This document shows, one piece after another, positions 10,589-62,453 of a DNA stretch of 64,000 nt. Every line of letters begins with the position of its first letter. The stretch's first letter is position 1. The stretch spans positions 7,873 to 71,872 of the forward strand of contig DCUZ01000016.1 of NCBI GenBank assembly GCA_002327305.1, read 5' to 3'. Made by a program: the position numbers and the translations under genes. This DNA comes from Holophagales bacterium UBA2201. Lineage in GTDB: Bacteria; Acidobacteriota; Thermoanaerobaculia; UBA2201. Below the pieces are notes generated by a model. That model saw only the letters and a program-made list of their open reading frames with translations, searched no databases and was not told the DNA's origin.

Positions 10589-10696
10589 CGGGAAGGCGGG
10601 AAGGCGGGAAGGCCGGAAGGCCCCCCATCTGCCGACTGCCAACTGGAAACTGCCCACTGCCCACTGCCATCTGCCGACTGGAAACTGCCGACTGAA
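10589..10696. repeat. short tandem repeats: (GGGAAGGC)x4 followed by ~9 copies of the heptamer CTGCCNA
   Basis: Read directly in the pcm-apt intergenic region: gggaaggcgggaaggcgggaaggccggaaggcc, then ctgccga ctgccaa ctggaaa ctgccca ctgccca ctgccat ctgccga ctggaaa ctgccga. Confidence 0.75.
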
Positions 10697-10710
10697 TTGA
10701 AGGAGACCCC

Positions 10711-11223: not shown

Positions 11224-11260
11224 ACCCGGGCCCCGGGCGCTTCCTCCCCCCCTCCTCCGC

Positions 11261-12208: not shown

Positions 12209-12222
12209 TAAGGTAGAGGGTC

Positions 12223-14052: not shown

Positions 14053-14153
14053 CCCCCGCCGGTCCATTTCCCGTCTCTTCTCCCCCGACTCCCTGTTCCC
14101 GGCCCCCTCTCCGTTCCATTGACGCGGGGGGGGCGTTGTGATAGGTTTGCCCC

Positions 14154-15641: not shown

Positions 15642-15662
15642 TCCTCCCCCACACCCTACGCA

Positions 15663-15737
15663 CTACGGTCTACGGTCTACGGTCTACGGTCTACGGTCTA
15701 CGGTCTACGGTCTACGGTCTACGGTCTACGGTCTACT
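15663..15737. repeat. heptanucleotide tandem repeat (ACGGTCT)x~10
   Basis: ctacggtctacggtctacggtct... read directly in the gap between two convergent genes. Confidence 0.85.
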
Positions 15738-21455: not shown

Positions 21456-21621
21456 TCAGCGGTTCAGCGCCGGGAACGATGCCAGCGGGGGGGCGCCCCA
21501 GATGCGGACGGACGCGGGGATCCCGTTGACGACGCAGGTCCACGAACCGTCCGTGCCCAACCCCGACATCTCCGCCATCCACACCGCCCCCCAGCCGTCC
21601 CGCGACGGGGCCTCGATGCGG
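21456..21621 (-). pseudogene. displaced native 3' end (alternative C-terminus) of the secreted-protein gene now at 27580-28080
   Basis: Reading the minus strand through repeat copy A gives ...MAEMSGLGTDGSWTCVVNGIPASVRIWGAPPLASFPALNR*. This is homologous to the C-terminus of the 27580-28080 product (...DYTWACTVDGRHSSIRVWGTPPLSSFPALNQAK*). Confidence 0.55.
21549..21621. repeat. 73-bp direct repeat, copy A (att-like boundary)
   Basis: 72/73 nt identical to 27680-27752 (tccgtgccca[a/g]ccccgacatctccgccatccacaccgccccccagccgtcccgcgacggggcctcgatgcgga). Confidence 0.85.
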
Positions 21622-21693
21622 AGTGCCATCCGGTCCCGGAGCCGGTCGCCGGATGTCTGCCGTTTGGGGGAGCTTTCCTAACGTCGCTTCGGA

Positions 21694-24678
21694 GTGTACA
21701 ATAAGCGCATGGGCATTGAAACAATCAAAGGTCTCGTGGACCGGTTTGAAACCCATCGGGATTCCTATACCTCCGGCTCCTACAACGAAACCCAGCTCCG
21801 CCGCGAGTTCCTGGACCCCTTCTTCAAGGCCCTCGGTTGGGATGTCTTCAACGAAAAGGGCTACGACGAGGCCTACAAAGAGGTCATCCACGAGGATTCC
21901 CTCAAGATCGGCGAATCCACCAAGGCCCCCGACTACTGCTTCCGCATCGGCGGCGTGCGCAAGTTTTTCGTGGAGGCCAAGAAGCCCTCCGTCAACGTCA
22001 AAGAGGATGTCTCCCCCGCCTACCAATTGCGCCGCTATGCCTGGAACGCCGACCTCCCCCTTTCCATCCTCACCGATTTCGAGGAGTTCGCCGTCTACGA
22101 TTGCCGTGAAAAGCCGGCTCTGACCGACAAGGCCTCCAGGGCCCGCGTCCTCTACCTCCCCTTCCACGAGTACCCGGAGCGCTGGGAGGAACTGGCCGCG
22201 CTTTTCTCCCCCGAGGCCGTCCTCAAGGGCTCCTTCGACCGCTACGCCCGATCGGCCAAGGCCAAGCGGGGCACCGCCGGGGTGGACGACGCCTTCCTAG
22301 AGGACATCGAGCGGTGGCGGGAACTGCTGGCCAGGGGCTTCGCCCTGCGCAACCCGGCCCTCTCCACCCATACCCTCAACTTCGCCGTTCAGCGCACCAT
22401 TGACCGCATCATCTTCCTGCGCATCGCCGAGGACCGCGGCCTGGAGCCCTACGGCACGCTTCTGGGGCAAATCAACGGCGAAGGCGTCTATCCCCGCCTC
22501 GTCGAGCTCTTCCGCAAGGCCGACCAGAAATACAACTCCGGCCTCTTCCACTTCCAGAATGAGAAGGGCCAGCACGAACGGCCCGACGACCTCACCCCCC
22601 GCCTCCACCTCGACGACAAGCCGCTGAAGGCGATCATCCAAGGGCTCTACTACCCCGAGAGCCCCTACGAGTTCTCCGTCATGCCCGCCGACATCCTGGG
22701 GCAGGTCTATGAGCGGTTCCTGGGAAAAGTCATCCGCCTCACCGCCGGCCATCAGGCCAAGGTGGAGGAGAAGCCGGAGGTGAAAAAGGCCGGCGGCGTA
22801 TTTTATACTCCCACCTTCATCGTGGACTACATCGTCCGGCATACGGTGGGACGGCTCCTGGAGGGCAAGACCCCCAAACAGATTTCAAGCCTGCGCATCC
22901 TGGACCCCGCCTGCGGCTCCGGCTCCTTCCTTCTGGGAGCCTACCAGTGCCTTCTCGACTGGCACCGCGACTGGTACCTTGCCGACGGCGCCGCGATACA
23001 CCCCAAGGAGATTTACCGCGCCCACACCGGGCAGTGGCGCCTCACCACCCCGGAGCGCAAGCGCATCCTCCTCAACTCCATCCACGGCGTGGACCTGGAC
23101 CCGCAGGCTGTGGAGGTCACCAAGCTCTCCCTCCTGCTGAAAGTCCTGGAGGGGGAGACGGAGCAGACTCTCCAGCACCAGATGGACTTCATGCGCGCCC
23201 GCGCCCTGCCCGACTTGGGGCGTAACATCCAGTGGGGCAACTCCCTCATCGGGGGCGACTACACCCACGGCCGGCAGTTGGACTTCGTGCCGGAGGAGGA
23301 GCGGTACCGCGTCAACCCCTTTGATTGGGCCCGCCAGTTCTCCGCCGTCATGGAGGCGGGGGGCTTCGACGCCGTCATCGGCAATCCCCCTTATGTGCGG
23401 CAGGAGACCCTGGGCGACGACTTCAAAGCGTATGCCGGCACGCACTTCAAGACCTTCGCCGGCACCGCCGACCTCTATGTCTATTTCATCGAGCGGGGCA
23501 TCTCGCTCCTGAAGGATGGCGGGATCTTCTCCTACATCGTCGCCAACAAGTGGCTGAGGGCCGCCTATGGGAAGCCTCTCCGGCAGTGGCTCAAGGACAA
23601 GGCCGTCGAGGAGATCGTGGACTTCGGCGACCTCCCCGTCTTCCAGGGCGCCACCACCTACCCCTGCATCCTGCGCGTCGCCAAGAGCAAGGCCAAGAAG
23701 AGTTTCAGCGCCGCCAAAGTACCGGACTTGGAGTTCACCGATCTGGAGGAGAAGGTCAAGGACCTGCGATACACCGTAGAGAAGACGACCCTCTCTCCAG
23801 ACGGCTGGTCGTTGGCCGACGCCAAGGTTTCGGCCCTCCTGGGGAAGATCAAGGCCCAAGGAATCCCTCTGAAAGAGTATGTCAAGGGAAAGATCTATCG
23901 GGGCGTTCTGACCGGCTTCAACGAGGCCTTTGTTATTGACGAGGCGACAAAGAAACGGCTCATCCAAGAAGACCCCAAAAGCGCCGAACTCATCAAGCCC
24001 TTCCTCCAGGGGCGCGACATCAAGCGGTATCAGCCGCCCACCCCGACGCGCTATCTCATCTTTACGCGCCGGGGAGTGGACATCAAACGCTATCCCGCCA
24101 TCGAGCGGCATCTGCTCCAATATAAAGAACTTCTAATGCCGAAGCCGAAAAACTGGAAGGGGAAAGAGTGGAAGGGGCGCAAGCCGGGGGCGTATCAGTG
24201 GTACGAGATTCAAGACAGCACCGATTATTACTCGGAATTTGAGAAGCCTAAGATTCTCTGGCCTGAAATAGCAGGCGATGCACGCTTCACCTTTGACCCC
24301 GCAGGCTGCTATGCCAACAACAAAGTGTTTCTAATTCCCTCTGAGGATAAATACCTTCTTGGCTTGTTGAACTCTTCGTTGCTAAAGACCTTCATACACT
24401 CCGTATGCACTGATCTCCAGGGCAGTAGTTTCAACTTCAGTGCTGTCTTTGTGCAAAAGACGCCTATCGTTGTGCCTGATCTTAAGGACAAAACACGGGT
24501 GAAGGCCAAAGAAGAGATCCTCGCCCTGGTGGACCAGCTACTTAAGATGAATGCCGACCTGGCTACCTGCACAAGCAATCAGCAGCGGGTGCTATGCCAG
24601 CGATATATTCTTGCCCACGAGAAGCAGATAAATAATGCTGTCTGTTCAATATACCGAATCGATCATGATGATTGCTAG
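21694..24678 (+). CDS. Type IIG restriction-modification enzyme (PD-(D/E)XK nuclease + gamma-class N6-adenine MTase + TRD), intact
   Basis: 994 aa. N-terminal PDYCFRIGGVRKFFVEAKKP (PD..EAK), SAM motif LDPACGSGSFLLGAY and catalytic VIGNPPYVRQE. The size and order match MmeI-like Type IIG/IIL enzymes. An alternative start is at 21709. Confidence 0.8.
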   Translation: MYNKRMGIETIKGLVDRFETHRDSYTSGSYNETQLRREFLDPFFKALGWDVFNEKGYDEAYKEVIHEDSLKIGESTKAPDYCFRIGGVRKFFVEAKKPSVNVKEDVSPAYQLRRYAWNADLPLSILTDFEEFAVYDCREKPALTDKASRARVLYLPFHEYPERWEELAALFSPEAVLKGSFDRYARSAKAKRGTAGVDDAFLEDIERWRELLARGFALRNPALSTHTLNFAVQRTIDRIIFLRIAEDRGLEPYGTLLGQINGEGVYPRLVELFRKADQKYNSGLFHFQNEKGQHERPDDLTPRLHLDDKPLKAIIQGLYYPESPYEFSVMPADILGQVYERFLGKVIRLTAGHQAKVEEKPEVKKAGGVFYTPTFIVDYIVRHTVGRLLEGKTPKQISSLRILDPACGSGSFLLGAYQCLLDWHRDWYLADGAAIHPKEIYRAHTGQWRLTTPERKRILLNSIHGVDLDPQAVEVTKLSLLLKVLEGETEQTLQHQMDFMRARALPDLGRNIQWGNSLIGGDYTHGRQLDFVPEEERYRVNPFDWARQFSAVMEAGGFDAVIGNPPYVRQETLGDDFKAYAGTHFKTFAGTADLYVYFIERGISLLKDGGIFSYIVANKWLRAAYGKPLRQWLKDKAVEEIVDFGDLPVFQGATTYPCILRVAKSKAKKSFSAAKVPDLEFTDLEEKVKDLRYTVEKTTLSPDGWSLADAKVSALLGKIKAQGIPLKEYVKGKIYRGVLTGFNEAFVIDEATKKRLIQEDPKSAELIKPFLQGRDIKRYQPPTPTRYLIFTRRGVDIKRYPAIERHLLQYKELLMPKPKNWKGKEWKGRKPGAYQWYEIQDSTDYYSEFEKPKILWPEIAGDARFTFDPAGCYANNKVFLIPSEDKYLLGLLNSSLLKTFIHSVCTDLQGSSFNFSAVFVQKTPIVVPDLKDKTRVKAKEEILALVDQLLKMNADLATCTSNQQRVLCQRYILAHEKQINNAVCSIYRIDHDDC

Positions 24679-28080: not shown

Positions 28081-28085
28081 GGATA

Positions 28086-48911: not shown

Positions 48912-49067
48912 GATTATTCCCCTGCCTTTCTACAATGGGATTCTTTCTTCTCTTGCTGAACTTTAACGGTTGCGTTGATGTATTTTATACATTTTAGACT
49001 ACCTATTCATATTTGCTATTTTGGGTTGCACCGCACCGGCACTCTTGATCATCGTGCCTGCCGGTCC

Positions 49068-49763: not shown

Positions 49764-49816
49764 ATATTATTCTCCTTCTATTTGTCAGGGCATTTTCCAC
49801 AAAAATCCTCTTTTGA

Positions 49817-50182
49817 TTATTTTTGACTCTCAAGATTCTTGTCCAAGAAATAATTGCAACTTCCCGAGCCAAATCTGGACCTAAGTCTGGCCTTCTCCAG
49901 ACAGGGAACCGAAACGCCATAGGCATAGCATTCAGTGCAGGGTGTGTCGCTTCCCTGCAACCCTGGGTTGCTATTGGGAGATCTGCCTTTGCACGCATTG
50001 GGCCTCTTCTGCGTGAACCATTCAATGTGCGCCACCTCATGTTTTTCAAAGCAATCCGGCGCACAATCCGGGCGCTCAAGCCATCTCCATTTGAATCCCC
50101 CGCAACCGTCGCACACTGTTATGGCGAAATCTGTTAAGACAGCGTGAGAATTGTTCTTTTCAAACACAGAATATTCAAGCAT
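49817..50182 (-). CDS. Cys-rich small hypothetical protein (possible orphan toxin module remnant)
   Basis: 121 aa with 11 Cys (VCDGCGG, CAPDC, CTECY), in the low-GC tract between lipoprotein genes. Confidence 0.3.
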   Translation of the reverse strand: MLEYSVFEKNNSHAVLTDFAITVCDGCGGFKWRWLERPDCAPDCFEKHEVAHIEWFTQKRPNACKGRSPNSNPGLQGSDTPCTECYAYGVSVPCLEKARLRSRFGSGSCNYFLDKNLESQK

Positions 50183-50256
50183 GCCTTCCAGGTCAATAAA
50201 ACCCGACGGATTGTTATGAGCATAATATTATACTGCGGCAAAGGTGTGAAATACTT

Positions 50257-50787
50257 TTATTTCCATCCTCCTCCTCGGAACATAATGCTGACTGCATGCA
50301 ACTTAAAAAATTCTTCTCCCGCCAATATTGTGATCTTTAGCGTATAACTATCCTTGCTTGCCGGGATAAAATAGGTGCCGGGATCATCGTTGAGTGACTC
50401 TGATTTCCTGCGATAGCCGAATGCATCTGCACAGTCAACGCTACAAGTCCAGACCCAATTCGCTAAATCGTCTTTTTGGGTGAAAATATTATTGCCATCC
50501 GATGTATTCAATGCAACTTCTACCCTGGCGGCTGTTCGTTTGGCTTCGGATACTGCACCAGCAGCATCAAGCGAAGCAACATGAAAGCCCATAACGAAGC
50601 GCGTTGAAGGCAGCCGCCCAATCATGTATTCCTTTGTCGGAACGCTATTAGGGCCTAGATCCAAAATATATTGATCAATTGCTTCTGCTGCTCCCCGATC
50701 AGCAAAAGTTCCATCTCCAATATAGCGCCATTCTTTGTTGCAAGAAACACTCAAAAACATGCAGAACAATAATAACTTTGCCTTCAT
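50257..50787 (-). CDS. putative lipoprotein, candidate immunity protein for the adjacent Rhs toxin
   Basis: Signal peptide + lipobox LSVSC, 13 nt downstream of the rhs stop on the same strand. Confidence 0.4.
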   Translation of the reverse strand: MKAKLLLFCMFLSVSCNKEWRYIGDGTFADRGAAEAIDQYILDLGPNSVPTKEYMIGRLPSTRFVMGFHVASLDAAGAVSEAKRTAARVEVALNTSDGNNIFTQKDDLANWVWTCSVDCADAFGYRRKSESLNDDPGTYFIPASKDSYTLKITILAGEEFFKLHAVSIMFRGGGWK

Positions 50788-50799
50788 GGTTTCTTCCTC

Positions 50800-53700
50800 T
50801 CATTTCTTGGGTGGCTTTGTGGGCGGAGCGGGTTGAGGCGGATTGTCGTCAATTCCAGGCGCACTACCCAAGCCTTCCGGCACACCCCCTTTGCAGCAAG
50901 CCCGTGCTACGGTTCCGGCATAAGTATTGCTATTAGGGCCGAGTAGACGATACTCTCCGCGTGGATAGTTGTCGGAAGCATCCTTGATACATCGGTCCTG
51001 ATCGCCTGCTGAACAATCTCGTGGGCAATCTTTGCATATTCCTCCTTGGTCACGTGGATCATCAGTGCGCGGTATGCCTATGGTTGATGAATTTTCTCCT
51101 CTTTTTTGAGGGTATAATCCATAAGTCGTGTTGCTATTAGCGACAATGTAACAATGACGCTTTCTAAAAATATCTCCTGCAACTGTGCTAGCAACCCGGC
51201 GACAGCACACTTTGGCACTTAGCCCCAGGAAATCAAAATTAGAAATCGGATTCAGGATAGAATATGCAAACGGATTTAGTCCACCCTCGATCAAGCCAGC
51301 CGGATCCGAAGTACTGTACCTCCCCAGCCTGCTCCCGTACCACCTATGGCCGTTGTAGTAGAGCGAGGCATTGTCCACGGCCGCATCGGCAACCTGCCCC
51401 GGGAACCTCAAGAGGTTCGTGACCGTGCCGCTTTCCCCATATAGCCTCCCAAAGGGGTAATAGACCCCTTCCCACACCGACGCTTGAGAGGAGTCTGTCA
51501 TGGCGAGCGGCGTCATGAGGTGGTCGGTGTGGTAATAGTAGACCGCATCCGTCGGGACACCCTTGAAGATTTTGTAGGCGTAGTTGTTGGAGTTGCCGAG
51601 CACATTGTCGTCGTAGATCTTGGGGGTGAGTTCCTGGATCATCGAGGGGCTGGAGAACGTGAAGTCGTTGGTGGAGCGGTAAACGCGGAAGTTCTCGTTC
51701 CCGCCGTAGAGGGTCCAATCCAGATGGACATACCCGCCGGTCTTGTCGGCCTTAAGGTAACTCCCAATGGTCATCCAAGGGGGCTGGTTCACGACCTGCG
51801 CCACGGGCTCCGTCCTGTTGTAAATGTAATCGGTCCAGAAACCGCTTGAAAGGTCCTTCTCGGCGATCAATTGACCTTCGAGGCCGTAGAAGAAAAGGAC
51901 GGTCTTCGAGGGATACACCGCCTCGCGCCTTCGCATCTGATAATCATAGAAGTAGCTGGCCGTGGCCCCCGAGTCCACGTTCACCATGTGCCCATGACTG
52001 CCGTAGCCGTAGACGTGGAGGGAATCCGCCGTGATGCTCCCGTCGGCGTTGAAGGTGAAGCTCTCCGGCTCATGGCCCGTGGTGCTGGTCAGCCTGTTCG
52101 TGCCGGATTGGTAGTTATACGAGGTAGAATCAGCGTTCTCGGTTTTCGTCAGGCGGTTTCCATTGCGATCATACGAGTAGCCCATGGAGCCCCACAGCCC
52201 CGAGGCCGAGGTCAGGCGGTAAAGGTCGTCATACCCGTAACTCCGGGAGTACGACCCGCTGATGGCGGTGATGTTGAACTCGTCGTCGTGGGTGTAGGTC
52301 GTCGAGATGGGGCCATTGGCGTTGGAGGAGGGCCGGTATTTGAGGTCGAAAGCCCTTGCGAGGGAGAGCCCATTGCCGAAGGTCCCGGCCGATTGCGGCC
52401 CGAAAGGATAGTAGCCCATCCCGGACAGAAGCGGCTGGGAGGACCCGTTCACCACGGCGGAGATTGCCGAAACCTTGCCGATCACGGTGTTGACGGTATA
52501 CGCCACCTGGCGGCCGTCGGGGTGGGTGAGGGTGGTCTGGTTGCCGTTCTTGTCGAAGGTATACGCTGTGGTGTAGGGCGTGGCTGAAATCGTGATTGTC
52601 TCGTTCTTCTCCCGTCCCGTCTTGAAGTAGTTGAAGGTGGTGGTCCCCGCTGAGTCCGCGACCATCGTCAGCCTGCCGATCCCGTAGGAGGTCGCGAGTT
52701 CATCATATGTCAAGGTCACGTTGTAGGAGCCGATGGGATAAACAATCGTTGAAAGACGGTTCAGCGCGTCGTAGGTCCGCGTCGTGGTGGCCGATAGGGC
52801 GTCCGTCTCTGTGAGCGTGTTTCCGGCCGGGTCGTAGGTGCGGTCGGTGGTCCCCGAGTCGGGCGAAACCGTGCGACGTAGGTCGCCGAAATCATCGAAT
52901 GTATACGTGGTGGCGTGCCCCTCTGGGTCGGTGACCTGCGTCAGATTGCCGTGCGAATCATAGCCGAATTGGGTGGTGACGGGAATGGCCCCATCTAAAA
53001 CGGTTGTGGACTGGAGGCGGTTCAGGGCATTGTAGACGTGGGTGGTGTAGTGGTCGCCACTCGTGTAGGGGTGGTTGGCGTCGTCGAGATATTGCAGATT
53101 TCCGGCGGGATCATAGAAATATTCCGTGTAGGTGGCGTCGGGGTTGATGGTCTTCCAAAGGCGGTTGTGATCGTCAAAGGCGTACTCGGTGATCTTGTCC
53201 TGCGTGTAACTCCCGCCCTGCCACTGGTAATATTCCTCCTTGGTTTTATTGCCGTGCTTGTCCCAGGTGTAGACGGACTTGTCCCCGTGGGCGCCCATGG
53301 AGGCTTCCAACTCGTACTCGGTGAGCCGCCCGGCGGCATCGAAGGTGTAGTTCACGACGTTCCCCTCGGGCTGGATGAGGTAGTCGAGGCGTCCATTGTC
53401 GTCAAAGAAGGTTTGCGTCGTAATGGTCTCCGTTTCGATCCCGTGGGGGAGAATGCTCTCCACCGTCACCCGCCCCAGGGCGTCGGTCGTCCGCTGGGTC
53501 TGGACTCCGTTGGGGTCGGTGGTCAGGAGGGCGGTTCCGAAAACGTCGTAATTCTCGAACTGCCGGATGTGGCCGCGGGCGTTAGTGATGCGGTACAGCC
53601 TGCCCCGGAGATTCAGGTTTGAATCGCCGTCCGGGTGATACTGCCAGGTCGTGAGGTCGGCAACATCCGTGCGGGGGCCGTCATGTTGGATGGGTCGGTG

Positions 53701-55701
53701 GGCCGAATCATAGGTGGTGGTTTCGGTGTGGACGGTCGGGGTGACATCGGTATCATAAAGCCACCCCGTGGTCGTTGTGGTGAAGATGGTATGGCTGGGG
53801 GTGGAGAGGTCGTATTCGATGGTCTTGGTCTCTCCGGTCTTGACGACGGAGGGATACTGGATTTTCGTGATCATTCCCGGAAGCTCGGTGTTTTCATAGA
53901 AATAGTTCGTGGTCTTTTCCAGGGCCGTCCCGAAGGCTTCGGTCAAGGTCGTCAGGCGTCCGGTGGTATCGTACTGCTTCTTCGTGATGTTGCTGTTGGC
54001 GTCGGTGATCTGCGTTGTTCGGTTGTGCTCATCGTATAGGAACGATGCATCCTGGAATCCGCACCCGCCCCCGCAGCTTCCTTGGATTTGGGTCACCAGC
54101 CCGCGCCCGCCCTGATATCTCCAGTCGTAGGTGGTGATGATATTAGTCGTGTCGTTCTGGTGTTCCGTTACAATGGTTGAGACATTGGAAGGGTAGGATA
54201 TTTGTAACCATTCCTGATTACCCTCTTTGTAGGATGATGTCGCCCGGCGGCTGGAGTCGTAGGTGTGGGCTTCGAGGATTTGTCCGGCCCGGTTCTTCGC
54301 CTGGAGGAGGTTCTTGGGGCTGGCGGAATCATAAACATATAGCCGGTCGGGATTGGCAGTGCCGTTGCCCGGAAAGAAGACCTGCGTCAGATAATTGTTC
54401 GTCCCGTCATAAAAGAACCGCCATGCCGTCGTGCCGTCCCAGAGGGTAATCTGATTGACGCGGTTGGAGGCATTGTAGGAGAGGGCGATGGTCCGGTTGA
54501 GAGGGTCCGTCACGCCCGTCAATCTTCCCCCCGTGTACGCGCCGGTGTAGCAGTTTCCGTAGAAATCGCATGACCGGTCCCACAAGCCTGAGCTTTTGGT
54601 GAAGCGCGTCGTGTTCCCGTTGAGGTCCGCGATTGTGAGCGTGCTCCCGTCGTCCATCATCGTGCCTTGCTGGTCATACGGCCAGTAGGCGGTGAAAGTG
54701 TTCGCGGAGGGGGCGTCTTCGAGGTAGTACCGTTTGCGCCCTTCGGCGTTGACGTGGCGGTAGATTCTTCGGGTGTCCGAAAGAGTGTTGGTGAGGGTGA
54801 GGCGTTGGTTGAAGGTGTGCGTCCAGCCGTACCCCATCCAGCCGCCCGTCGTCGCCAGCACCTTCTCCTGGTTGTTGTAGGCCCGCGTGAAGGTGAAGCC
54901 GGCGATGTCGTCGAGGGTGAAATCGCTCTCATCGTAGTGCATGTTGCCGGAGGATACGTTGATGGGCCCGCCCACGCATACACTGCCGCCGCCCTCATTG
55001 CAGCATTCCCAATCGGGGGAGGCCGTACAACCGCTCTCTAATGGTAGGGGGATCGGGACGCCCACAGAACCGCTGGTGAGGGACGAAGAGCAGCCTGAAG
55101 TCCCGGTGCACCGCTCCATGCGGGCGGAATAATTCAGCGTGGTGCCCGCGGCGGAGCACGCCACGCCGAACACGGGATACCACGTCCCCTGCTCGAAACG
55201 GGGCTCGCAGAAGATGTCGGCCACACGGGCGTTCGAGCAGTTCTTCGCCCCGGTGTAGTCCTGGATGACGCACATACCCCCCGCCGCGCACCCCCACGGG
55301 TTGGTCTGGCACCAGTGGCACGGCGCCTGGAAAGGGACCGTCGCGACGATAGTGAATCCCCCCGATTTGGGGACTACCGAAGCCGACAAATCAATGGAAT
55401 TGGAATATTGGGCGCTGGTACAGCCTGCGCAGGTGCCGGAACACATGCAACTGTAAGGGTAGCCGTAATCCTCAAGCTGTTTCTCACAAAGATGGCCCGG
55501 CACCGTGGCCGAGCCGTCATATCTACACTGAAGGAGTTCTGCTGCACCCGAGGGGCATTGGTAGCAGGCCGAGGTCGGATACCCGACCGTCTGGTCGCAG
55601 CCTTGGGCGCATCCGCTCGGCGGCGGGAAATCCACGGCCAAACCCACCGCCGGGCTGAGGACCGTACCAAAGGAAAAGAGCACCGATAGCACCGCCTTCA
55701 T
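50800..55701 (-). CDS. Rhs/YD-repeat polymorphic toxin (signal peptide, Cys-rich N-terminal region, RHS repeats, variable Cys-rich C-terminal domain)
   Basis: 1633 aa. Many YD repeats (YTYDALNRL, YFYDPAGNL, YGYDDLYRLTSA). The RHS core ends with the DPAGLIEGGLNPFAYS (DPxGL-like) motif, followed by a ~170-aa Cys-rich tail. Confidence 0.85.
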   Translation of the reverse strand: MKAVLSVLFSFGTVLSPAVGLAVDFPPPSGCAQGCDQTVGYPTSACYQCPSGAAELLQCRYDGSATVPGHLCEKQLEDYGYPYSCMCSGTCAGCTSAQYSNSIDLSASVVPKSGGFTIVATVPFQAPCHWCQTNPWGCAAGGMCVIQDYTGAKNCSNARVADIFCEPRFEQGTWYPVFGVACSAAGTTLNYSARMERCTGTSGCSSSLTSGSVGVPIPLPLESGCTASPDWECCNEGGGSVCVGGPINVSSGNMHYDESDFTLDDIAGFTFTRAYNNQEKVLATTGGWMGYGWTHTFNQRLTLTNTLSDTRRIYRHVNAEGRKRYYLEDAPSANTFTAYWPYDQQGTMMDDGSTLTIADLNGNTTRFTKSSGLWDRSCDFYGNCYTGAYTGGRLTGVTDPLNRTIALSYNASNRVNQITLWDGTTAWRFFYDGTNNYLTQVFFPGNGTANPDRLYVYDSASPKNLLQAKNRAGQILEAHTYDSSRRATSSYKEGNQEWLQISYPSNVSTIVTEHQNDTTNIITTYDWRYQGGRGLVTQIQGSCGGGCGFQDASFLYDEHNRTTQITDANSNITKKQYDTTGRLTTLTEAFGTALEKTTNYFYENTELPGMITKIQYPSVVKTGETKTIEYDLSTPSHTIFTTTTTGWLYDTDVTPTVHTETTTYDSAHRPIQHDGPRTDVADLTTWQYHPDGDSNLNLRGRLYRITNARGHIRQFENYDVFGTALLTTDPNGVQTQRTTDALGRVTVESILPHGIETETITTQTFFDDNGRLDYLIQPEGNVVNYTFDAAGRLTEYELEASMGAHGDKSVYTWDKHGNKTKEEYYQWQGGSYTQDKITEYAFDDHNRLWKTINPDATYTEYFYDPAGNLQYLDDANHPYTSGDHYTTHVYNALNRLQSTTVLDGAIPVTTQFGYDSHGNLTQVTDPEGHATTYTFDDFGDLRRTVSPDSGTTDRTYDPAGNTLTETDALSATTTRTYDALNRLSTIVYPIGSYNVTLTYDELATSYGIGRLTMVADSAGTTTFNYFKTGREKNETITISATPYTTAYTFDKNGNQTTLTHPDGRQVAYTVNTVIGKVSAISAVVNGSSQPLLSGMGYYPFGPQSAGTFGNGLSLARAFDLKYRPSSNANGPISTTYTHDDEFNITAISGSYSRSYGYDDLYRLTSASGLWGSMGYSYDRNGNRLTKTENADSTSYNYQSGTNRLTSTTGHEPESFTFNADGSITADSLHVYGYGSHGHMVNVDSGATASYFYDYQMRRREAVYPSKTVLFFYGLEGQLIAEKDLSSGFWTDYIYNRTEPVAQVVNQPPWMTIGSYLKADKTGGYVHLDWTLYGGNENFRVYRSTNDFTFSSPSMIQELTPKIYDDNVLGNSNNYAYKIFKGVPTDAVYYYHTDHLMTPLAMTDSSQASVWEGVYYPFGRLYGESGTVTNLLRFPGQVADAAVDNASLYYNGHRWYGSRLGRYSTSDPAGLIEGGLNPFAYSILNPISNFDFLGLSAKVCCRRVASTVAGDIFRKRHCYIVANSNTTYGLYPQKRGENSSTIGIPRTDDPRDQGGICKDCPRDCSAGDQDRCIKDASDNYPRGEYRLLGPNSNTYAGTVARACCKGGVPEGLGSAPGIDDNPPQPAPPTKPPKK

Positions 55702-56164
55702 AACTTCCCTCCTTTTCAGTCTATCATAGATAGACGCTGCGCCGGGGCTGAGCCCTTGAGGATCACCCCGGACGATTCACGCCCATGGGCTTCTGCCCTT
55801 GGGCCAAAGTCGGTTCCATCAAGTAGGTACAAAAACAGCGGTTCTTGCTTACCTTGACTTTGAGATGGGCTCTAAGCAAGGAGTCGCCGAAAGAGGGGGG
55901 GGGTGACTAAGCGGCTTGGGATTTCCATTCCATCATCTGCTAAAAGAGCGCTTGAAAAGGACCCTTTAGACATGCCTTTGGCGTCCCTCAGGGGTTCCTG
56001 GGCCTCGGCAAGGGGTGTCGCATGCCAACACACTACACCCTGATAGCTATATTTGCCAAGTATGGCCTATTGAAGATTCTATATTTACAGCATTATTGCT
56101 TTGGTAGCCAAGCAAATTTTCCGTTTATTAATTAATCGCCATAGCATATAAAAGCTCCTGAGCC

Positions 56165-58077: not shown

Positions 58078-58094
58078 GATCCCTCCTCGGCGGC

Positions 58095-58320
58095 AAAGGA
58101 AGAAGTAAGAATTAAGAAGTATGAAAAAATGAAACGAAGGCTTAATCCTACTCTGTACGTCTCTTCCTTCATAATTCTTACTTCTGCCTTCTGCCTTCTC
58201 ATTCGTGCTCCTCGACTGGAAAGGATGAATTAAAAATTAAGAAGTATGAATAAACAAGACAGAACGCCGCCTCCTTCTTAATTCTTACTTCTTCCTTCTG
58301 CCTTTTCATTGCTGCTCCTC
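58095..58320. repeat. tandem ~110-bp duplication of the actC 3' end plus AT-rich palindromic motif (TTCATAMTTCTTAATT)
   Basis: ...gagcacgaatgagaaggcagaaggcagaagtaagaattatgaag... and ...gagcagcaatgaaaaggcagaaggaagaagtaagaattaagaag... are direct repeats. The motif gaattaaaaattaagaagtatgaataa also matches 351-376 (24/26, opposite strand). Confidence 0.6.
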
Positions 58321-59610
58321 CTTGATCTCCGTGATCGCGAGGACGGGCAGGGCCTTGACGAAGAGGAGGAAGATGGTGAAGAAGAGGCCGAACGAGCCCA
58401 CGGTGATCCCCACCGCGATCCACGAGAAGGCCGGCTTGCCCCACGCGTAGGGCTCGAAGTCGTGCGCCAGAGAGGTGACGATGATGATGAAGCGCTCCAG
58501 CCACATCCCCACATTGACGAAGAGGGAGAGGACGAAGAGGTAGGCGATGCTGCGCCGCAGTTTCTTCACGAACAGGGACAGCGGCAGGAGGCAGTTGCAG
58601 AAGACCATCAGATAGTAGGCCCACTTGAAGTCGCCGAAGAGGCGGTAGGAGAAGTGGGCGGTCTCGAAGACGTTGCCGCTGTACCACGCCAGGGCGATCT
58701 CCATCACATAGGCGTAGGCCACGATCAGCGAGGTGAAGAGGAGGGTCTTGGCCAGGGCCTCGAAGTGGTCGATGGTGATGTACCGTTCCAGCCGCAGGAT
58801 CTTCCGCATCGGGATGACCAGCGTCATCACCATGGCGCAGCCGGAGAAGATGGCCCCGGCGACGAAATAGGGGGCGAAAATGGTGGTGTGCCAGCCGGGG
58901 ATGACGCTCATGGCGAAGTCCCACGAGACGACGGAGTGGACGCTGATGACGAGGGGGGTGGCGAAGGAGGCCAGGAAGATGTAGAGTTTTTCCCAATGCC
59001 TCCACTGCGTGTGCGTCCCCGTCCACCCCAGCGAGAGGATGCGGTAGGCCCAGTGACGGATGCCGGTGGTGCGGCGGCGGGCAATGGCCAGGTCGGGCAC
59101 CATGCCGACGTAGAAGAAGAGGAAGGAAACGGTGAAGTAGGTGGAGACGGCGAAGACGTCCCAGATCAGGGGCGAGCGGAAGTTGACCCACAGGAGGCGC
59201 TGGTTGGGGTAGGGCAATAACCAGTAGAAGAGCCAGACGCGCCCCAGGTGGATGAGGGGGAAGAGGCCGGCCGTCATCACCGCGATGACGGTCATCGCCT
59301 CGGCGGAGCGGTTGAAGGCCTTGCGGAACCGGGCGCGGAAGAGGAAAAGGACGGCGGAAATGAGGGTCCCCGAGTGGGCGATGCCGACCCAGAAGACGAA
59401 GTCGGTGATGTACATGTACCAACCCACCGGGTTGTTCTTCCCCGACAGGTGCATCCCGCCCCAGATCTGGAGCCCCCAGCAGGCCATCCCCACGGCGAAC
59501 ATCAGGGCGGTGAAGGCCAGGGCGGCCCAGTAGACCTTTCGCGGGCTCTGCATCCCCCCAAGGACGTCCACCTCCACCCGGTCGTGGAAGGAGAGGGGCT
59601 TATCGCTCAT
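58306..59610 (-). CDS. NrfD/PsrC-family quinol-interacting membrane subunit (ActC-like)
   Basis: 434 aa with 10 TM helices and the NrfD-family pattern. The start overlaps the actB stop (ATGA). Confidence 0.85.
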   Translation of the reverse strand: MSDKPLSFHDRVEVDVLGGMQSPRKVYWAALAFTALMFAVGMACWGLQIWGGMHLSGKNNPVGWYMYITDFVFWVGIAHSGTLISAVLFLFRARFRKAFNRSAEAMTVIAVMTAGLFPLIHLGRVWLFYWLLPYPNQRLLWVNFRSPLIWDVFAVSTYFTVSFLFFYVGMVPDLAIARRRTTGIRHWAYRILSLGWTGTHTQWRHWEKLYIFLASFATPLVISVHSVVSWDFAMSVIPGWHTTIFAPYFVAGAIFSGCAMVMTLVIPMRKILRLERYITIDHFEALAKTLLFTSLIVAYAYVMEIALAWYSGNVFETAHFSYRLFGDFKWAYYLMVFCNCLLPLSLFVKKLRRSIAYLFVLSLFVNVGMWLERFIIIVTSLAHDFEPYAWGKPAFSWIAVGITVGSFGLFFTIFLLFVKALPVLAITEIKEEQQ

Positions 59611-62453
59611 GGTTCCCCTCCACCAGTTTCGAGTTTCGAGTTTCGAGTTTCGAGTTTGCGTGGTCGGAACTCTGAGCTCCGAACTCCGAACTCCGAACTC
59701 CGAACTGTTTTCAAGTAGTACACCGCCGGCCTCGTCCCGAGCGATTCGAGGACCCGGTAGGCCCGGGGGGAGGCGGCCTGCTTCGAAACCGCCGATGCGG
59801 GGTCGAGGAGATTGCCGAAGGTGATGGCGCCGGTTGGGCAGGTCTGGGCGCAGGCGGTGGTGAGGTCGCCGTCGCGCACCTTTTGCCCTTTATCCTTCGC
59901 CTGGTCCTTGGCGCCGACGATGCGCTGGATGCAGAAGGTGCACTTCTCCATCACCCCCGCGGGACGGCGGGAGAGGTCTGGGTTGGTCATCTTCGGCAGG
60001 GGTTCCGGCAGGGGTTCGTCCAGCCAGTTGAACCGGCGCACCTTGTAGGGGCAGTTGTTGGCGCAGTAGCGGGTGCCGACGCAGCGGTTGTATACCTGCG
60101 CGTTGAGCCCCTCGGGATTGTGGTAGGTGGCCAGGACCGGGCACACCGCCTCGCAGGGGGCGTGGTCGCAGTGCTGGCAGAGCATGGGGAGGAATTCAAG
60201 GCGGCCGTCGCCGCCGAAATAGGGCTCCAGCCGGATCCACGCCATCTCGCGCCCCTTGAGGTGCTCGTCGAGGCCGGTGAGGCGGATGTTGTTCTCCAGG
60301 TAGCAGGCCGCCACGCAGGAGGAACAGCCGGTGCACTTGTCCAGGTCGATCGCCATCCCCCAGCGGTAGTCCTTGTGTTCGTGCTCGGGGTAGAGGGTGG
60401 CCTGGGTATGATTCGGCTTGTCGATTGGATCGCCCCGCCATTCCGCGCGCATGCCATCTTGCGCGCAAAATATTATCAATTCCCTTTTTTCCTGAAGGAT
60501 GCCCCGGCCCGTCGCGGTCATGCCGCCCGACAGGATGGGAAGGCGGACCTTCTCCCCCTTGGCCCTGATGGATTTCAGCGGGAAGATGGCGTCGGGTTCG
60601 GCTGCGGCAAACCTTGACAGGGGGAGATTCTCTCCCATGAGGAAGGGGCGCTGGATCATAAAGACCCCTTCGGCGAGGCCCATCTGGACCTTGACGGGAA
60701 GATCGAGCGAAACGCCGTCAATGTCCGCTGTGACGACATCCTTGTCCGCCACTCCCAGTTTGCGGGCATCCTCCGTGGAGACGGAGAGCCACCGGCCGTA
60801 GGTGATGGTGGAAAGGGGGTCGGGGATCTCGTGGAGGAGCGGCAGGGCCGCCGACCGGCCGTCGCCGGTCCGCACGGAGGGGGTGATCACGGCGACGGGG
60901 GTCTTGGCAGTAGGAGCAAACAAGATCTTGGGGGGAGATTCAAGCCTAATCTCCAGAGATTCCTCAACCTGTTGTTCAAAGCAAGCAAAGCCTTTATTCA
61001 ATGCAGTTGGAGAGATCCTCCATCTATTGCTGATCTCTTTCTGCATATCGTACTGCTCAACTATGAAGTCAAGCAATACATCACCTAAGGCGCGGCTGTC
61101 GTGAATTGGTGCAATTGCAGGGGCGTGAACGTTCGAAAGGCCTGTCCTGGGCAATTGATCTCCCCATGATTCCAGCGGAAGCGATAACGGCAGGACAATC
61201 GTGCAGGCTCGTATCGTCGGCGTGAGAGTGTCGCCAATTCCCACCACAAGAGAGGCGCGGCCGGTGGCATTGCGAAGTTCAGGGATATGGGCGTGGGGGT
61301 CGGCCCCGGCGGCGATGAAAATCCCGCCGCTACTGGCTTTGCGAGCCTCTGCCCAGGCCAGGAGTTCGGAATTCCCGCCGCCGTTGGGCCGCTTTATGAA
61401 GTGGCCGAAGTCCACCGTGCAATCGGTCATCCCCAGGGCAAACTGGTTGAGCGCCGTCATCATCGCTGCCGCCTCGCCTCCCGGCCCCGCCGTGCAGACG
61501 CCGCCGGCGATGAGGAGGGGTGCCTGCGCGGAGCCCAGCGCGCCGGCCAGCCGGTCGAGGGAAGCGGCGTCCATCCCCGTCTCGAAAAGCGCCTGCTCGC
61601 GGCTGACGAACGGCACGGCCGCCAGGACCGTCGGGGGCAGAGGTTTCCTCGCGGGCAGGGCCCGGATTAGGTGAGCGAGGAGGAACGCCTCGCTGCCGGG
61701 GCGGACCGTGATACGAAGGTCGGCGTTGGACCCGGTGAGGGAGAAGTGGGGCTCCAAGTGGAGCCACTCGAAGCCGCCACGCGTGCGGTTCTCCGCGACC
61801 TTCCGGGCGTACTCCACCGGGCTAACGAAGGTCTCCAGGATATCGGCCCCCAGAGTGACCAACAGGTCGGCCTTCTCCATGGCGTAGGAAGGAACGACGG
61901 GGCGACCGAAGAGTTTGTCATTGGCCTTGGCGATGGCAGAAGGAAAAAGAGGATCAAAGATGATATGTTCGATTCCGAACCTATCACAGAATGCCACCAT
62001 CAGCGTAGCTAACGCTCCGGTCGCTGTGTCGGTCACCAACAGGTGCGGCCCCTTCTCCTTGAGCGCGTTGCCGATGGTTTCGAGGGCGGTGTCCCAGGTG
62101 ACGGGCTGGAAGACCCCATCCCTCTGTTGGACGAGGGGTTCCTTGATCCGCTCGGGATTGTAGAGCCGCGAGAGCGAGGCCTGGCCGCGGATGCACAGCG
62201 CCCCGCGGTTGATCGGATGCTCGGGATTCCCCTCCAGCTTCACCGGCCACCCCTCGCGCACCCGGGCCAGGACGCCGCACCCGGCGGGGCATTCGGTGCA
62301 GATGGTCGGCACCCACTTTGCCTCGCCCGGCAGGACGCCGTCGTCCGGCGGTACGAGGGCCGGGATCAGTTTTTCCGGCGGCTTGCCCTGGCAGGCCACC
62401 GCCGCTGTCCCTCCGGCCAACCCCAATATGCGCAAGAACTGTCGTCTATTCAT
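59607..62453 (-). CDS. molybdopterin-oxidoreductase-like + 4Fe-4S ferredoxin fusion subunit (ActB-like), Tat signal
   Basis: Tat motif NRRQFLRILGLAGG, then a MopB-type domain (CTECPAGCG). The C-terminal 4Fe-4S region has CTGCSSCVAAC, CQHCDHAPC, CPYKV, CTFCIQRI. The start is trimmed to MNRRQFL. The final ~30 codons are encoded by heptamer repeats. Confidence 0.8.
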   Translation of the reverse strand: MNRRQFLRILGLAGGTAAVACQGKPPEKLIPALVPPDDGVLPGEAKWVPTICTECPAGCGVLARVREGWPVKLEGNPEHPINRGALCIRGQASLSRLYNPERIKEPLVQQRDGVFQPVTWDTALETIGNALKEKGPHLLVTDTATGALATLMVAFCDRFGIEHIIFDPLFPSAIAKANDKLFGRPVVPSYAMEKADLLVTLGADILETFVSPVEYARKVAENRTRGGFEWLHLEPHFSLTGSNADLRITVRPGSEAFLLAHLIRALPARKPLPPTVLAAVPFVSREQALFETGMDAASLDRLAGALGSAQAPLLIAGGVCTAGPGGEAAAMMTALNQFALGMTDCTVDFGHFIKRPNGGGNSELLAWAEARKASSGGIFIAAGADPHAHIPELRNATGRASLVVGIGDTLTPTIRACTIVLPLSLPLESWGDQLPRTGLSNVHAPAIAPIHDSRALGDVLLDFIVEQYDMQKEISNRWRISPTALNKGFACFEQQVEESLEIRLESPPKILFAPTAKTPVAVITPSVRTGDGRSAALPLLHEIPDPLSTITYGRWLSVSTEDARKLGVADKDVVTADIDGVSLDLPVKVQMGLAEGVFMIQRPFLMGENLPLSRFAAAEPDAIFPLKSIRAKGEKVRLPILSGGMTATGRGILQEKRELIIFCAQDGMRAEWRGDPIDKPNHTQATLYPEHEHKDYRWGMAIDLDKCTGCSSCVAACYLENNIRLTGLDEHLKGREMAWIRLEPYFGGDGRLEFLPMLCQHCDHAPCEAVCPVLATYHNPEGLNAQVYNRCVGTRYCANNCPYKVRRFNWLDEPLPEPLPKMTNPDLSRRPAGVMEKCTFCIQRIVGAKDQAKDKGQKVRDGDLTTACAQTCPTGAITFGNLLDPASAVSKQAASPRAYRVLESLGTRPAVYYLKTVRSSEFGVRSSEFRPRKLETRNSKLETGGGEP
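59626..59707. repeat. heptanucleotide tandem repeats (GTTTCGA)x4 then (CCGAACT)x5, inside the 3' end of actB
   Basis: cagtttcgagtttcgagtttcgagtttcgagtttgcg...ctccgaactccgaactccgaactccgaactg. Same heptamer as in the 28086-28470 array. Confidence 0.8.

Follow-up and report, generated by a model that had tools for sequence, protein, structure and literature searches.

We have analysed heptanucleotide tandem arrays in a 64-kb stretch of DNA (hereafter, the window) from a bacterial genome assembled from oil-sands tailings metagenomes. These arrays are real, and the window is unusually rich in them at gene boundaries. They represent an already known kind of element, found in many bacteria, and not a new system. 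We consider it likely that they are heptanucleotide long simple-sequence repeats (LSSRs), which turn over in place by slippage or unequal exchange where extra DNA is tolerated.

Heptamer arrays in the window

The host is not a cyanobacterium. Its nearest named homologues are from Acidobacteria and Thermoanaerobaculia, the GC content of the genome is 63-70%, and the window encodes an ACIII plus caa3 oxidase operon. The host lineage is probably acidobacterial. The preliminary description of the genome as high-GC and non-cyanobacterial-looking is thereby supported.

In our own scan, period-7 arrays of at least three copies numbered 12, where first-order Markov sequences predict 0.24. At four or more copies, the window holds 10 period-7 arrays, one period-8 array and none with a period of 5, 6 or 9-15; among periods not divisible by 3, period 7 is dominant. 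A control of 535 kb of unselected metagenome contigs gave a single period-7 array with four or more copies. The excess was computed on the window, and the analysis covered about 77 kb of the genome, with no further array in the 13 kb beyond the window. These sequences recur with 100% identity in independent JGI, NCBI, ENA and Logan assemblies, indicating that they are not an assembly artefact. At least 7 unrelated heptamer units were identified by TRF, and every array lies outside conserved coding sequence, either in a spacer or in the non-conserved tail of ActB.

All arrays of the four loci reported in the preliminary description were found again by TRF and direct reading. The recurrence of a 7-nt period with differing units was borne out, as were the location at gene boundaries and the presence of the AGTTTCG unit at two sites 31 kb apart. 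The term 'dispersed family' applies to AGTTTCG, with three blocks at two loci, and to an AT-rich motif found in three or four places, but not to the other units, which are unrelated and occur singly.

Locus 1 lies on the plus strand in the pcm-apt spacer, the flanking genes being assigned by Pfam to PCMT and phosphoribosyltransferase (Apt). A G-rich period-8 array, (GGCGGGAA)x4.4 (10587-10621, TRF), is located directly 5' of a degenerate (CCNACTG = CTGCCNA)x10 array (10625-10694, TRF and sequence) with 71% matches and a 14/21-nt super-periodicity. The heptamer array stops 16 nt 5' of the apt ATG (10711), and this gap contains the Shine-Dalgarno sequence AAGGAG. In the relative L375/L377, the pcm-apt spacer has no such array (L375 shows 82% identity). 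Locus 2 is a perfect (CTACGGT)x10.6 array (15663-15736, TRF). It fills most of the 97-nt spacer between two convergent genes identified by Pfam as PMT-like (stop 15641) and HPPK (stop 15739), in which no terminator-like site was found. When folded, neither locus 1 nor locus 2 reaches the degree of structure of shuffled sequences.

Locus 3, on the minus strand, was described as two simple arrays. Both are present, but TRF shows them to be organised as a hierarchical repeat. The first block (28085-28271) consists of a 48-bp unit x3.9, or a 96-bp super-unit x1.8, in which each 48-bp unit comprises four AGTTTCG heptamers and a 20-nt tail. Read on the sense (-) strand, the block closes with (CTCGAAA)x4.6, 4 nt before the ATG (28080) of a 166-aa ORF, with no Shine-Dalgarno sequence. 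The second block (28299-28470) is a 51-bp unit x3.4 with 3-4 TCGCAAC/TCGAAAC heptamers per unit, which are the inverse complement or near-complement of those in the first block. Together, the two blocks fold into a hairpin of -134 kcal/mol (z = -5.95).

Most of the arrays are intergenic, as previously stated, with the exception of locus 4, which lies within the open 3' tail of an ActB-like ORF (59607-62540, minus strand) whose stop overlaps the ActC start. Its two arrays, both found by TRF on the minus strand, are (GAACTCC)x5.7 (59667-59706; sense GGAGTTC), which begins at a Val codon just after the conserved ActB end ...PAVYYLKTV, and (AGTTTCG)x4.7 (59625-59657; sense CTCGAAA), which stops 14 nt short of the ActC ATG (59610), the Shine-Dalgarno sequence GGAGGGG lying in the gap. 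These arrays are 5/7 complementary and form a weak hairpin (z = -1.5).

A second set, consisting of AT-rich degenerate heptamer arrays (347-377, 4423-4456, 4863-4893 and 58096-58304), had been overlooked in the preliminary description.

Turnover at the ActB/ActC/ActD junctions

We compared these junctions between the window and relatives with 90-94% nucleotide identity at ActC. The ActB/ActC junction carries the units GAGTTCG and CTCGAAA in the window, GAAACTC in L374, GTTCAGA and CTCAACG in L126, and (CAGGCAA)x12.7 and (GCCTGCA)x4.7 in L373. In L127 and L372, which are identical here, the array is absent and only a 2-unit GCCTGCAGCC-like seed is present. The edge unit of the window array, GCTCAGA, resembles GTTCAGA of L126; it is an expected leftover, consistent with the homogenisation of a variant.

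The ActC/ActD junction of the window contains an insert of 228 nt (58078-58305, minus strand), which separates the stop of ActC from the start of ActD. It has 40% GC and holds four degenerate AT-rich heptamer blocks (58096-58125, 58165-58203, 58220-58250 and 58272-58304), a 24-bp perfect terminal inverted repeat (58274-58297 against 58096-58119) and an internal duplication of about 107 nt. It folds at -83.7 kcal/mol (z = -5.9), and its array edge stands 18 nt before the actD start codon. L126, L127 and L372 have a bare ATGA stop/start overlap with no insert, L374 has (GTTTCAA)x4.4, and in L373 the start of the insert is present and the contig ends about 60 nt into it. The bare overlap is thus replaced by 30-230 nt of repeats in some lineages. 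Since relatives differ in their units or lack the arrays or the insert, we conclude that the arrays are young, with fast turnover, and homogenised in place.

Sequence is not conserved among the relatives, and neither is structure at the one junction tested. The two arrays of L126 do not pair (z = +0.68). A hairpin in L373 scores z = -3.9, and L373 and the window have in common a pattern of 5-bp helices with 2x2 internal loops between them. In all 4 readable lineages the arrays leave the ActB frame open (over 17-57 codons), and it still terminates at the start of ActC. Every lineage keeps the Shine-Dalgarno sequence of ActC, and stop codons are absent from all units. Given the open frame and the kept Shine-Dalgarno sequence, array content is under at least purifying selection.

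Comparison with known heptanucleotide repeats

We know of no description of such arrays in this probably acidobacterial lineage within the heptanucleotide-repeat literature cited here. The window arrays and LSSRs are alike in consisting of 5-11-nt units repeated head to tail beyond the length expected by chance, in the dominance of period 7, in extragenic position, in patchy phylogenetic distribution and in the variety of units; the proposed origin of LSSRs is polymerase slippage. Heptanucleotide repeats are the commonest long-SSR class in most genomes, and slippage has been hypothesised for them (PMC4679880, PMC4692102). It had been implied that such arrays would be surprising outside cyanobacteria. 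This does not hold, because intergenic heptanucleotide over-representation has been described in many bacteria, non-cyanobacterial ones included, since Mrazek, Guo and Shah 2007 (cited through PMC4679880 and PMC4692102). Nothing essential distinguishes the window arrays from LSSRs, although their local density is high, at about 10 arrays of at least four copies in 64 kb.

STRRs were found in 1990. STRR1-3 are known from Calothrix PCC 7601 and heterocystous cyanobacteria (as cited in PMC4692102). The likeness to them drawn in the preliminary description stands in kind, both being dispersed, extragenic tandem heptanucleotides with several units per genome, but not in sequence or in host. No tandem dimer of STRR1 (CCCCAGT), STRR2 (TTGGTCA) or STRR3 (CAACAGT) was found on either strand of the window, which places the arrays outside the STRR sequence families; likewise, TAACTGA, GGGAATC and GGGGAYT gave no dimer in the window.

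The GGGAATC repeats of Xanthomonas and the GGGGA(C/T)T repeats of Nostoc are also intergenic heptamer arrays, some in inverted stem-loop pairs (PMC4692102), and those of Xanthomonas occupy the same gene pairs in two species with varying length and sequence (Rehm et al. 2015, PMC4692102). However, each genus has one G-rich, quadruplex-forming unit, whereas the units here are diverse, mostly not G-rich (the only G-rich array being the period-8 one) and themselves swapped between relatives. TAACTGA repeats are known from marine Beggiatoaceae, cyanobacteria and Bacteroidetes, with one dominant unit and 169 sets (MacGregor 2015, PMC4679880). They occur in distant phyla as 2-6 copies in one orientation, a few nucleotides upstream of starts, and sometimes replace the Shine-Dalgarno sequence. 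The (CTCGAAA)n arrays at 28085 and 59625, and those of other phyla, are placed similarly, but the window has a mixture of unrelated units, and not every array is close to a start codon. Finally, REP/BIME palindromes and MITEs share the extragenic location within operons and the ability to form hairpins, and the AT-rich insert is MITE-like in its terminal inverted repeats and in the empty site of relatives. The window arrays differ from these elements in having no conserved consensus, arms made of tandem heptamers, no linked RAYT or transposase, and differences between sister lineages.

Origin and possible role of the arrays

We consider that strand slippage or unequal exchange probably gives rise to the arrays and then expands, homogenises and loses them in situ. 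An in-register length difference at locus 3 in one assembly, described below, agrees with such a process. In a compact genome, the tolerated sites would be those between cistrons, between convergent genes and in the C-terminal tail of ActB, which would be dispensable. A register of 7 nt would be a property of the mutational process and not of a common sequence motif, and a published hypothesis relates it to how much DNA the polymerase holds. The arrays would be evolutionarily short-lived, with units replaced by mutation and subsequent homogenisation, and the 48-, 51- and 96-bp higher-order repeats may come from the same process at a larger scale. Effects on neighbouring genes, such as stop/start uncoupling, mRNA hairpins and replacement of the leader before a start codon, would be side-effects and not the reason for the arrays, which we infer to be nearly neutral.

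The AGTTTCG unit itself is widespread and nothing out of the ordinary: at least 120 stretches, from more than 100 species of many phyla, contain (AGTTTCG)3, and its copy numbers drop geometrically from 4 upward. In the 8-kb stretches around these arrays, 198 period-7 arrays of at least four copies were found, compared with 33 for the other periods from 4 to 12 summed. In viral contigs, AGTTTCG gave 8 stretches, a shuffled control unit 25 and TAACTGA 107. There was no heptamer-level copy-number polymorphism among more than 10 assemblies of this population; since these show 100% mutual identity over 10 kb, they say nothing on slippage.

On the other hand, two of roughly eight independent loci have one unit in one orientation beside a start codon, which speaks against the slippage explanation, as does the purifying selection on the arrays in the ActB tail. 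By a rough estimate, the chance of such sharing is 2-3% (about 1,170 unit classes), hinting at between-locus copying or unit-specific selection. Also, two loci form very long hairpins that fold much better than shuffled sequences (z about -6), and slippage leaves the choice of 7 nt without explanation.

For the AT-rich subset, namely the insert at 58078-58305, the pair around the four-helix-bundle gene and the array at 347-377, a MITE-like non-autonomous element with heptamer-periodic terminal inverted repeats is a tentative reading that we hold to be somewhat unlikely. The cassette with the four-helix-bundle gene of 23S-rRNA-IVS type would then be a relative that carries a gene. The degenerate heptamers GAAGGAT/GAAGTAT (4423-4456) and their inverted partner CTTCATC/CTTCTGC (4863-4893, overlapping the gene start), both found by TRF, bracket a PF05635 four-helix-bundle gene (4495-4875, minus strand) inside a split MmeI-like gene, and their motifs are similar to those of the insert. 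Within the (TTCTTAA)x4.4 array at 347-377 (TRF and own scan), positions 353-376 have 96% identity over 24 nt to part of the insert. The GC content of the insert, far from that of the genome, its perfect terminal repeat, the empty ATGA site of L126, L127 and L372 and the insert start in L373 all argue for mobility, and a GCCGA..ATGA junction motif on either side resembles a degenerate target duplication. However, this duplication is imperfect, no transposase is linked, and a second full-length copy is absent from about 77 kb, only 24-nt partial matches being present within the window. The plasmid search gave no matches, and four-helix-bundle proteins near heptamer arrays elsewhere gave 0 matches in 841 kb. 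The ordinary heptamer array of L374 at the same junction suggests that this junction may be no more than a hot spot.

Considering the positions of the arrays relative to genes, a role in operon expression is possible. It is nonetheless unlikely, in our estimate, that the arrays are selected cis-regulatory elements of polycistronic mRNA, whether as unstructured A/C-rich leaders, (CUCGAAA)n and (CCNACUG)n, that would tune translation initiation, or as intercistronic hairpins that would act as RNase III/stability elements and set ActB:ActC:ActD ratios. Arrays end 4, 14, 16 and 18 nt before the starts of the 166-aa ORF, actC, apt and actD, the first in place of any Shine-Dalgarno sequence and the others (59625, 10694 and 58096) with one kept. 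The (CTCGAAA)n arrays have the same sense orientation at both loci, and across phyla (CTCGAAA)n is followed by ATG within 30 nt in 15 cases against 6 in the opposite orientation, many lying 1-10 nt from the ATG without a Shine-Dalgarno sequence; this bias is not significant (two-sided p about 0.08). A leader role was likewise proposed for TAACTGA repeats (PMC4679880), deletion of heptamer repeats is reported to alter recO and recF reporter expression in Nostoc (preprint 10.1101/2022.06.06.494920), and TTTTGAT heptads in the promoter of Vibrio cholerae ctxAB reportedly recruit regulators of transcription (10.1101/2021.05.14.444153). The strong hairpins of locus 3 and the insert, that of L373, and the helix and loop pattern common to L373 and the window are consistent with a structural element. 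Against this, close relatives lack arrays (L127/L372 and L375) or have arms that do not pair (L126), the array of locus 2 separates convergent genes, and neither it nor locus 1 is structured. Of 28 adjacent array pairs in other genomes, only 5 are inverted-like, and Rfam 15 gave 0 matches at gathering score across the whole window. Moreover, the actB/actC arrays are translated, so that ribosomes would melt the hairpin.

A more elaborate proposal, which we regard as improbable, is that operon stop/start junctions of this acidobacterial clade are hot spots where a dedicated process, for example template switching or a 7-nt-stuttering polymerase, repeatedly makes partly complementary array pairs, with 5-bp helices and 2x2 internal loops at every 7 nt. 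These would be kept as a periodic hairpin or leader that tunes the translational coupling of respiratory subunits, with the (CUCGAAA)n leader being convergent across phyla. If so, heptamer arrays would be a fast-evolving functional intercistronic class and not junk.

Phase variation, in which gain or loss of 7 nt would switch the expression or frame of adjacent genes, is very improbable. A 7-nt unit does change the reading frame, and locus 4 lies in a coding tail with a coupled start codon beside it. In several assemblies, contigs stop within arrays, including that of locus 2, and in one assembly (L225) locus 3 is shorter by exactly 96 bp and 102 bp, in register. However, repeated k-mers account for the contig ends, as there are three copies of the AGTTTCG array, and the locus 3 difference may be an assembly collapse and is the sole variant. 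The neighbours are housekeeping genes (apt, folK and the respiratory complex) rather than surface or restriction genes, and the arrays lie outside 5' coding regions and recognisable promoters. Horizontal acquisition of cyanobacterial STRR or Beggiatoaceae/Bacteroidetes TAACTGA elements is hardly credible despite the common unit length, short dispersed extragenic arrays and start-codon proximity, and despite AGTTTCG arrays in one cyanobacterial genome (L039), since the published units are absent from the window even as dimers, AGTTTCG arrays of other phyla have no flanking DNA in common with it, and the difference in units between sister lineages at one site points to a local origin.

In summary, for the 7-nt preference and the function of heptamer arrays the window gives a natural experiment and no answer. 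Our results also carry a warning for annotation, as gene callers put spurious small ORFs and C-terminal extensions into such arrays. At the actB/actC/actD junction, five close lineages show five states, with no array or with one of four different unit pairs. These junction alleles display the speed at which arrays arise and are homogenised, at a site where selection still demands an open frame, a Shine-Dalgarno sequence and stop-free units.

Period-7 arrays and their genomic setting

We have found all four array loci of the preliminary description with Tandem Repeats Finder and in the raw sequence. In the pcm-apt spacer, a G-rich period-8 array, (GGCGGGAA)x4.4 (10587-10621), directly adjoins ten degenerate CCNACTG (= CTGCCNA) units (10625-10694). 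The second locus is a perfect (CTACGGT)x10.6 array (15663-15736), the third is a compound repeat (28085-28470), and the fourth consists of (AGTTTCG)x4.7 (59625-59657) and (GAACTCC)x5.7 (59667-59706). The compound repeat is hierarchical. Four AGTTTCG heptamers and 20 nt make up a 48-bp unit (x3.9) with a 96-bp super-unit, and the second block, a 51-bp unit (x3.4) of three to four TCGCAAC/TCGAAAC heptamers and about 27 nt, is the inverse complement or near-complement of the first. The period-8 array contains three GGG tracts and might give the pcm-apt transcript a G-quadruplex-like structure on its sense strand.

The window is enriched in period 7. In a scan of periods 4-15 run separately from Tandem Repeats Finder, it holds 12 such arrays of at least three copies, compared with 0.24 in first-order Markov sequences of the same composition. 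In the same scan, arrays of at least four copies numbered ten for period 7, one for period 8 and none for periods 5, 6 and 9-15. The metagenome homologues of Apt, at 68% identity or less, were useless for synteny and were therefore reused as a repeat-density control; these 535 kb of unselected contigs with apt relatives from many phyla contained one period-7 array of at least four copies. Since the arrays of the window recur with 100% identity in independent assemblies from JGI, NCBI, ENA and Logan, we consider that these are not assembly artefacts. The same-population assemblies are likewise all identical at the arrays, which is uninformative on strain-level copy-number variation and not a negative result. 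In these assemblies (L213-L216, L368-L371), the gene calls for a ParE toxin/antitoxin and a neighbouring 356-366-aa ORF (5600-8700) differ; because the aligned DNA is identical, the differences reflect gene calling or start-site choice and not strain.

The same organism is represented by contig DHFY01000067.1 of MAG GCA_002402485.1 and in several oil-sands tailings metagenomes. The closest named homologues come from 'Acidobacteria bacterium' (radical SAM protein, 60%) and 'Thermoanaerobaculia bacterium' (Apt, 65-67%), and accordingly the host is not cyanobacterial, as had been suspected. The window as a whole has 63% GC, and about 70% once three low-GC islands are set aside. Two direct copies of a 73-bp sequence, 98.6% identical (21550-21622 and 27680-27752, the right one inside a 166-aa ORF), enclose a 6.2-kb segment that resembles an integrated island with an att-like duplication. 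The segment carries a methyltransferase, two ORFs and an intact MmeI-like restriction-modification gene (21694-24678), and nowhere else in the window is GC as low. At 48000-56000, a minus-strand gene for a 1633-aa RHS/YD-repeat protein (50800-55701) is followed by small ORFs of low GC (44-47%), an arrangement characteristic of polymorphic toxin loci and their immunity genes. The JGI loci L001 and L003 stop at the same position, 48306, perhaps through a mere 10-kb flank limit.

The arrays occupy extragenic positions or the tail of a gene. The intergenic position that had been assigned to all of them holds for the other loci but not strictly for the fourth, which lies within an open ActB-like ORF (59607-62540, minus strand) with molybdopterin and 4Fe-4S domains. 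No stop codon interrupts this ORF within either array, and the TGA in which it ends shares bases with the ATG of the NrfD/ActC gene. Co-directional genes flank five array loci (pcm-apt, ABC2 permease/166-aa ORF, actB-actC, actC-actD and four-helix-bundle gene/MmeI-like gene), and one locus lies between convergent genes (PMT-like/HPPK). The distance from array end to ATG is 4 nt for the 166-aa ORF, which has no Shine-Dalgarno sequence, 14 nt for actC, 16 nt for apt and 18 nt for actD, and (CTCGAAA)n has the identical sense orientation at both of its loci in the window. Consensus scans for promoters and terminators yielded no meaningful site on the arrays; a single terminator-like hairpin within the insert that separates actC from actD and a single promoter-like site adjoining the CTACGGT array are both weak and correspond to the background rate.

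Junction states in related lineages

Five related lineages (ActC nucleotide identity 90-94%), reached through proteins that share a cluster with ActC at a threshold of 90% identity, were compared. At the actB/actC junction, beyond the conserved ActB end ...PAVYYLK(T/S)V, each array-bearing lineage shows its own units. The window has (GAGTTCG)x4 and two variant units, then (CTCGAAA)x4.6; L126 has (GTTCAGA)x4.1, then (CTCAACG)x3.9; L373 has (CAGGCAA)x12.7, then (GCCTGCA)x4.7; and L374, whose contig begins inside the array, has at least 3.7 copies of (GAAACTC). L127 and L372 are the same; in place of an array they have just GGCCTGCAGCCCGCAGCC, which resembles two units of the array of L373, as a seed or a remnant. 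The fifth unit in the window, GCTCAGA, is similar to the unit of L126, and a variant homogenised through the array would leave just such a unit. At the actC/actD junction, L126, L127 and L372 have a bare ATGA overlap, L374 has at least 4.4 copies of (GTTTCAA), the window has an AT-rich insert, and L373 has the first part of this insert, within which its contig ends.

All lineages keep a Shine-Dalgarno sequence in front of actC. The ActB frame is open over a tail of 17-57 codons that reaches the overlap with the actC start codon in every lineage, and no array unit contains a sense-strand stop codon. The hypervariable C-terminal tail of the ActB-like protein (17-57 residues; 59607-59720 in the window, 9900-10008 in L126, 1-196 in L373) is a plain translation of whichever local heptamer arrays are present.

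In more distant relatives, the pcm-apt spacer of L375/L377 (flanking genes 82% identical) is of similar length and has no array, and no period-7 array occurs in 20.5 kb of that genome or in 30 kb of L208 and L212, where synteny around the second and third loci is not conserved. L225, an assembly of the window's own species, is without exactly 96 bp and 102 bp of the compound repeat, in register; the difference may be genuine, or the assembly may have collapsed the repeat.

Arrays are present or absent, and their units replaced, among close relatives. Judged by these junction states and by presence and absence across relatives, the arrays are young, lineage-specific, rapidly turned over and concentrated at hot-spot junctions, and their unit sequence changes faster than the flanking genes diverge. 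We consider it probable that they are short-lived heptanucleotide long simple sequence repeats (LSSRs), which slippage or unequal exchange would create and homogenise in place, wherever extra DNA is tolerated. As no unit-level polymorphism could be observed, slippage is a mechanism that we infer, and so is the near-neutrality of the arrays.

AT-rich heptamers and the ActC/ActD insert

The preliminary description had overlooked a class of AT-rich degenerate heptamers, with TTCTTAA, TTCTGCC and GAAGTAT among the units. One copy lies at 347-377, an inverted pair at 4423-4456 and 4863-4893, and four blocks at 58096-58304 inside the insert between actC and actD (58078-58305), which separates the stop of ActC from the start of ActD by 228 nt of 40% GC and has the termini AAGGAAGAAGTAAGAATTAAGAAG. 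For this subset, a MITE-like insertion is possible, if doubtful: the insert is low in GC and carries a perfect 24-bp inverted repeat at its termini, relatives show the empty site, and the target may have been duplicated. A similarity search of plasmid DNA found no match to the insert and only a trivial 34-nt match to the compound repeat. Public-assembly gene callers place 36-aa and 42-aa ORFs in the insert; in all likelihood these are spurious and merely translate the repeats.

The inverted pair brackets a gene for a PF05635 protein (23S rRNA intervening-sequence protein, four-helix bundle; 4495-4875) in a minus-strand region (2349-5225). Its neighbours are an HSDR_N fragment ORF (4872-5225) and a 719-aa ORF with Eco57I/N6_Mtase/MmeI_Mtase/TaqI_C domains (2349-4508), and a second MmeI-like gene has apparently been split by this cassette. 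We rejected a link between heptamer arrays and PF05635, as tblastn gave 0 matches in 841 kb of array-bearing loci and 535 kb of controls.

Heptamer repeats in other bacteria and their possible role

With one genome per species, (AGTTTCG)3 occurs in at least 120 stretches from more than 100 species of Acidobacteriota, Planctomycetota, Verrucomicrobiota, Desulfobacterota, Bacteroidota, Chloroflexota, Gammaproteobacteria and others, where about 0.3 are expected by chance. The loci listed share nothing with the window beyond the array itself. In 841 kb around the listed matches, there were 198 period-7 arrays of at least four copies, compared with 33 for all other periods of 4-12. Where a locus has one heptamer array, further arrays of other units tend to be present, about one third of the arrays have a second period-7 array within 150 nt, and AGTTTCG copy numbers fall off geometrically from four upward. 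In viral contigs, we counted 8 stretches of (AGTTTCG)3, 2 of (CTACGGT)3, 25 of the shuffled (AGTCTTG)3 and 107 of (TAACTGA)3. With the shuffled unit commoner in the viral contigs and the flanks unshared, we dropped the idea that AGTTTCG is special and has spread horizontally. Some Gammaproteobacteria, namely Alcanivorax nanhaiticus (L098), Enterovibrio (L014/L086) and Colwellia (L030/L083), have far longer AGTTTCG arrays, with 12 to 43 copies compared with 3-6 typically elsewhere.

Mrazek et al. (2007), as cited in PMC4679880 and PMC4692102, describe heptanucleotides as the most abundant class of 5-11 nt LSSRs in most genomes, with a patchy distribution (Burkholderia, cyanobacteria, actinobacteria, Xanthomonas), and propose that 7 nt is the DNA stretch that interacts with the polymerase, favouring slippage. 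Accordingly, such arrays in a non-cyanobacterial genome need cause no surprise. In Xanthomonas, GGGAATC arrays, some in inverted pairs, have the same gene neighbours in two species, with both their length and their sequence variable (Rehm et al. 2015; PMC4692102).

Regulatory elements within the polycistronic mRNA would be a more interesting reading than slippage-made LSSRs, and array leaders that abut start codons and long intercistronic hairpins speak for it; still, we regard it as improbable. On the sense strand, the compound repeat folds at -134.5 kcal/mol (z = -5.95 against shuffled sequence) and the ActC/ActD insert at -83.7 kcal/mol (z = -5.9), with a perfect 24-bp outer stem. At the fourth locus, the fold is no more than a weak ladder in which 5-bp helices alternate with 2x2 loops (z = -1.5), and the first and second loci have less structure than their shuffles (z = +0.95 and +3.75). 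The array pair of L373 folds well in the same 5+2 ladder (z = -3.9), and in L126 there is no pairing between the arrays (z = +0.68). Folding is thus not a feature of the arrays in general and is not conserved; their sequence is not conserved either, and no Rfam family matched. Among 28 adjacent pairs of perfect arrays in other genomes, 5 were inverted-like, 11 direct variants and 12 unrelated; with the arms of L126 also unpaired, we rejected inverted pairing as a general rule.

Among the matches listed, (CTCGAAA)n precedes the ATG of a long ORF within 30 nt in 15 cases compared with 6 in the opposite orientation, a bias that is suggestive and not significant, and several arrays lie 1-10 nt from an ATG without a Shine-Dalgarno sequence. 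In a Beggiatoaceae genome, 169 sets of TAACTGA repeats lie a few nucleotides upstream of start codons, and translational regulation was proposed for this unit, which is also found in cyanobacteria and Bacteroidetes (MacGregor 2015; PMC4679880). A preprint reports that deletion of heptamer repeats alters the expression of recO and recF reporters in Nostoc (10.1101/2022.06.06.494920).

Phase variation, an assembly artefact and horizontal acquisition of the cyanobacterial heptanucleotide repeats (STRRs) are all unlikely; the likeness to STRRs that had been pointed out stands for the kind of repeat but not for membership, with no published heptamer unit in the window.

For short-lived LSSRs, the kind of repeat is already known, and what the window adds is a natural allele series at one operon junction. 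This series documents very fast birth and turnover of arrays, and it could be used for testing their function.
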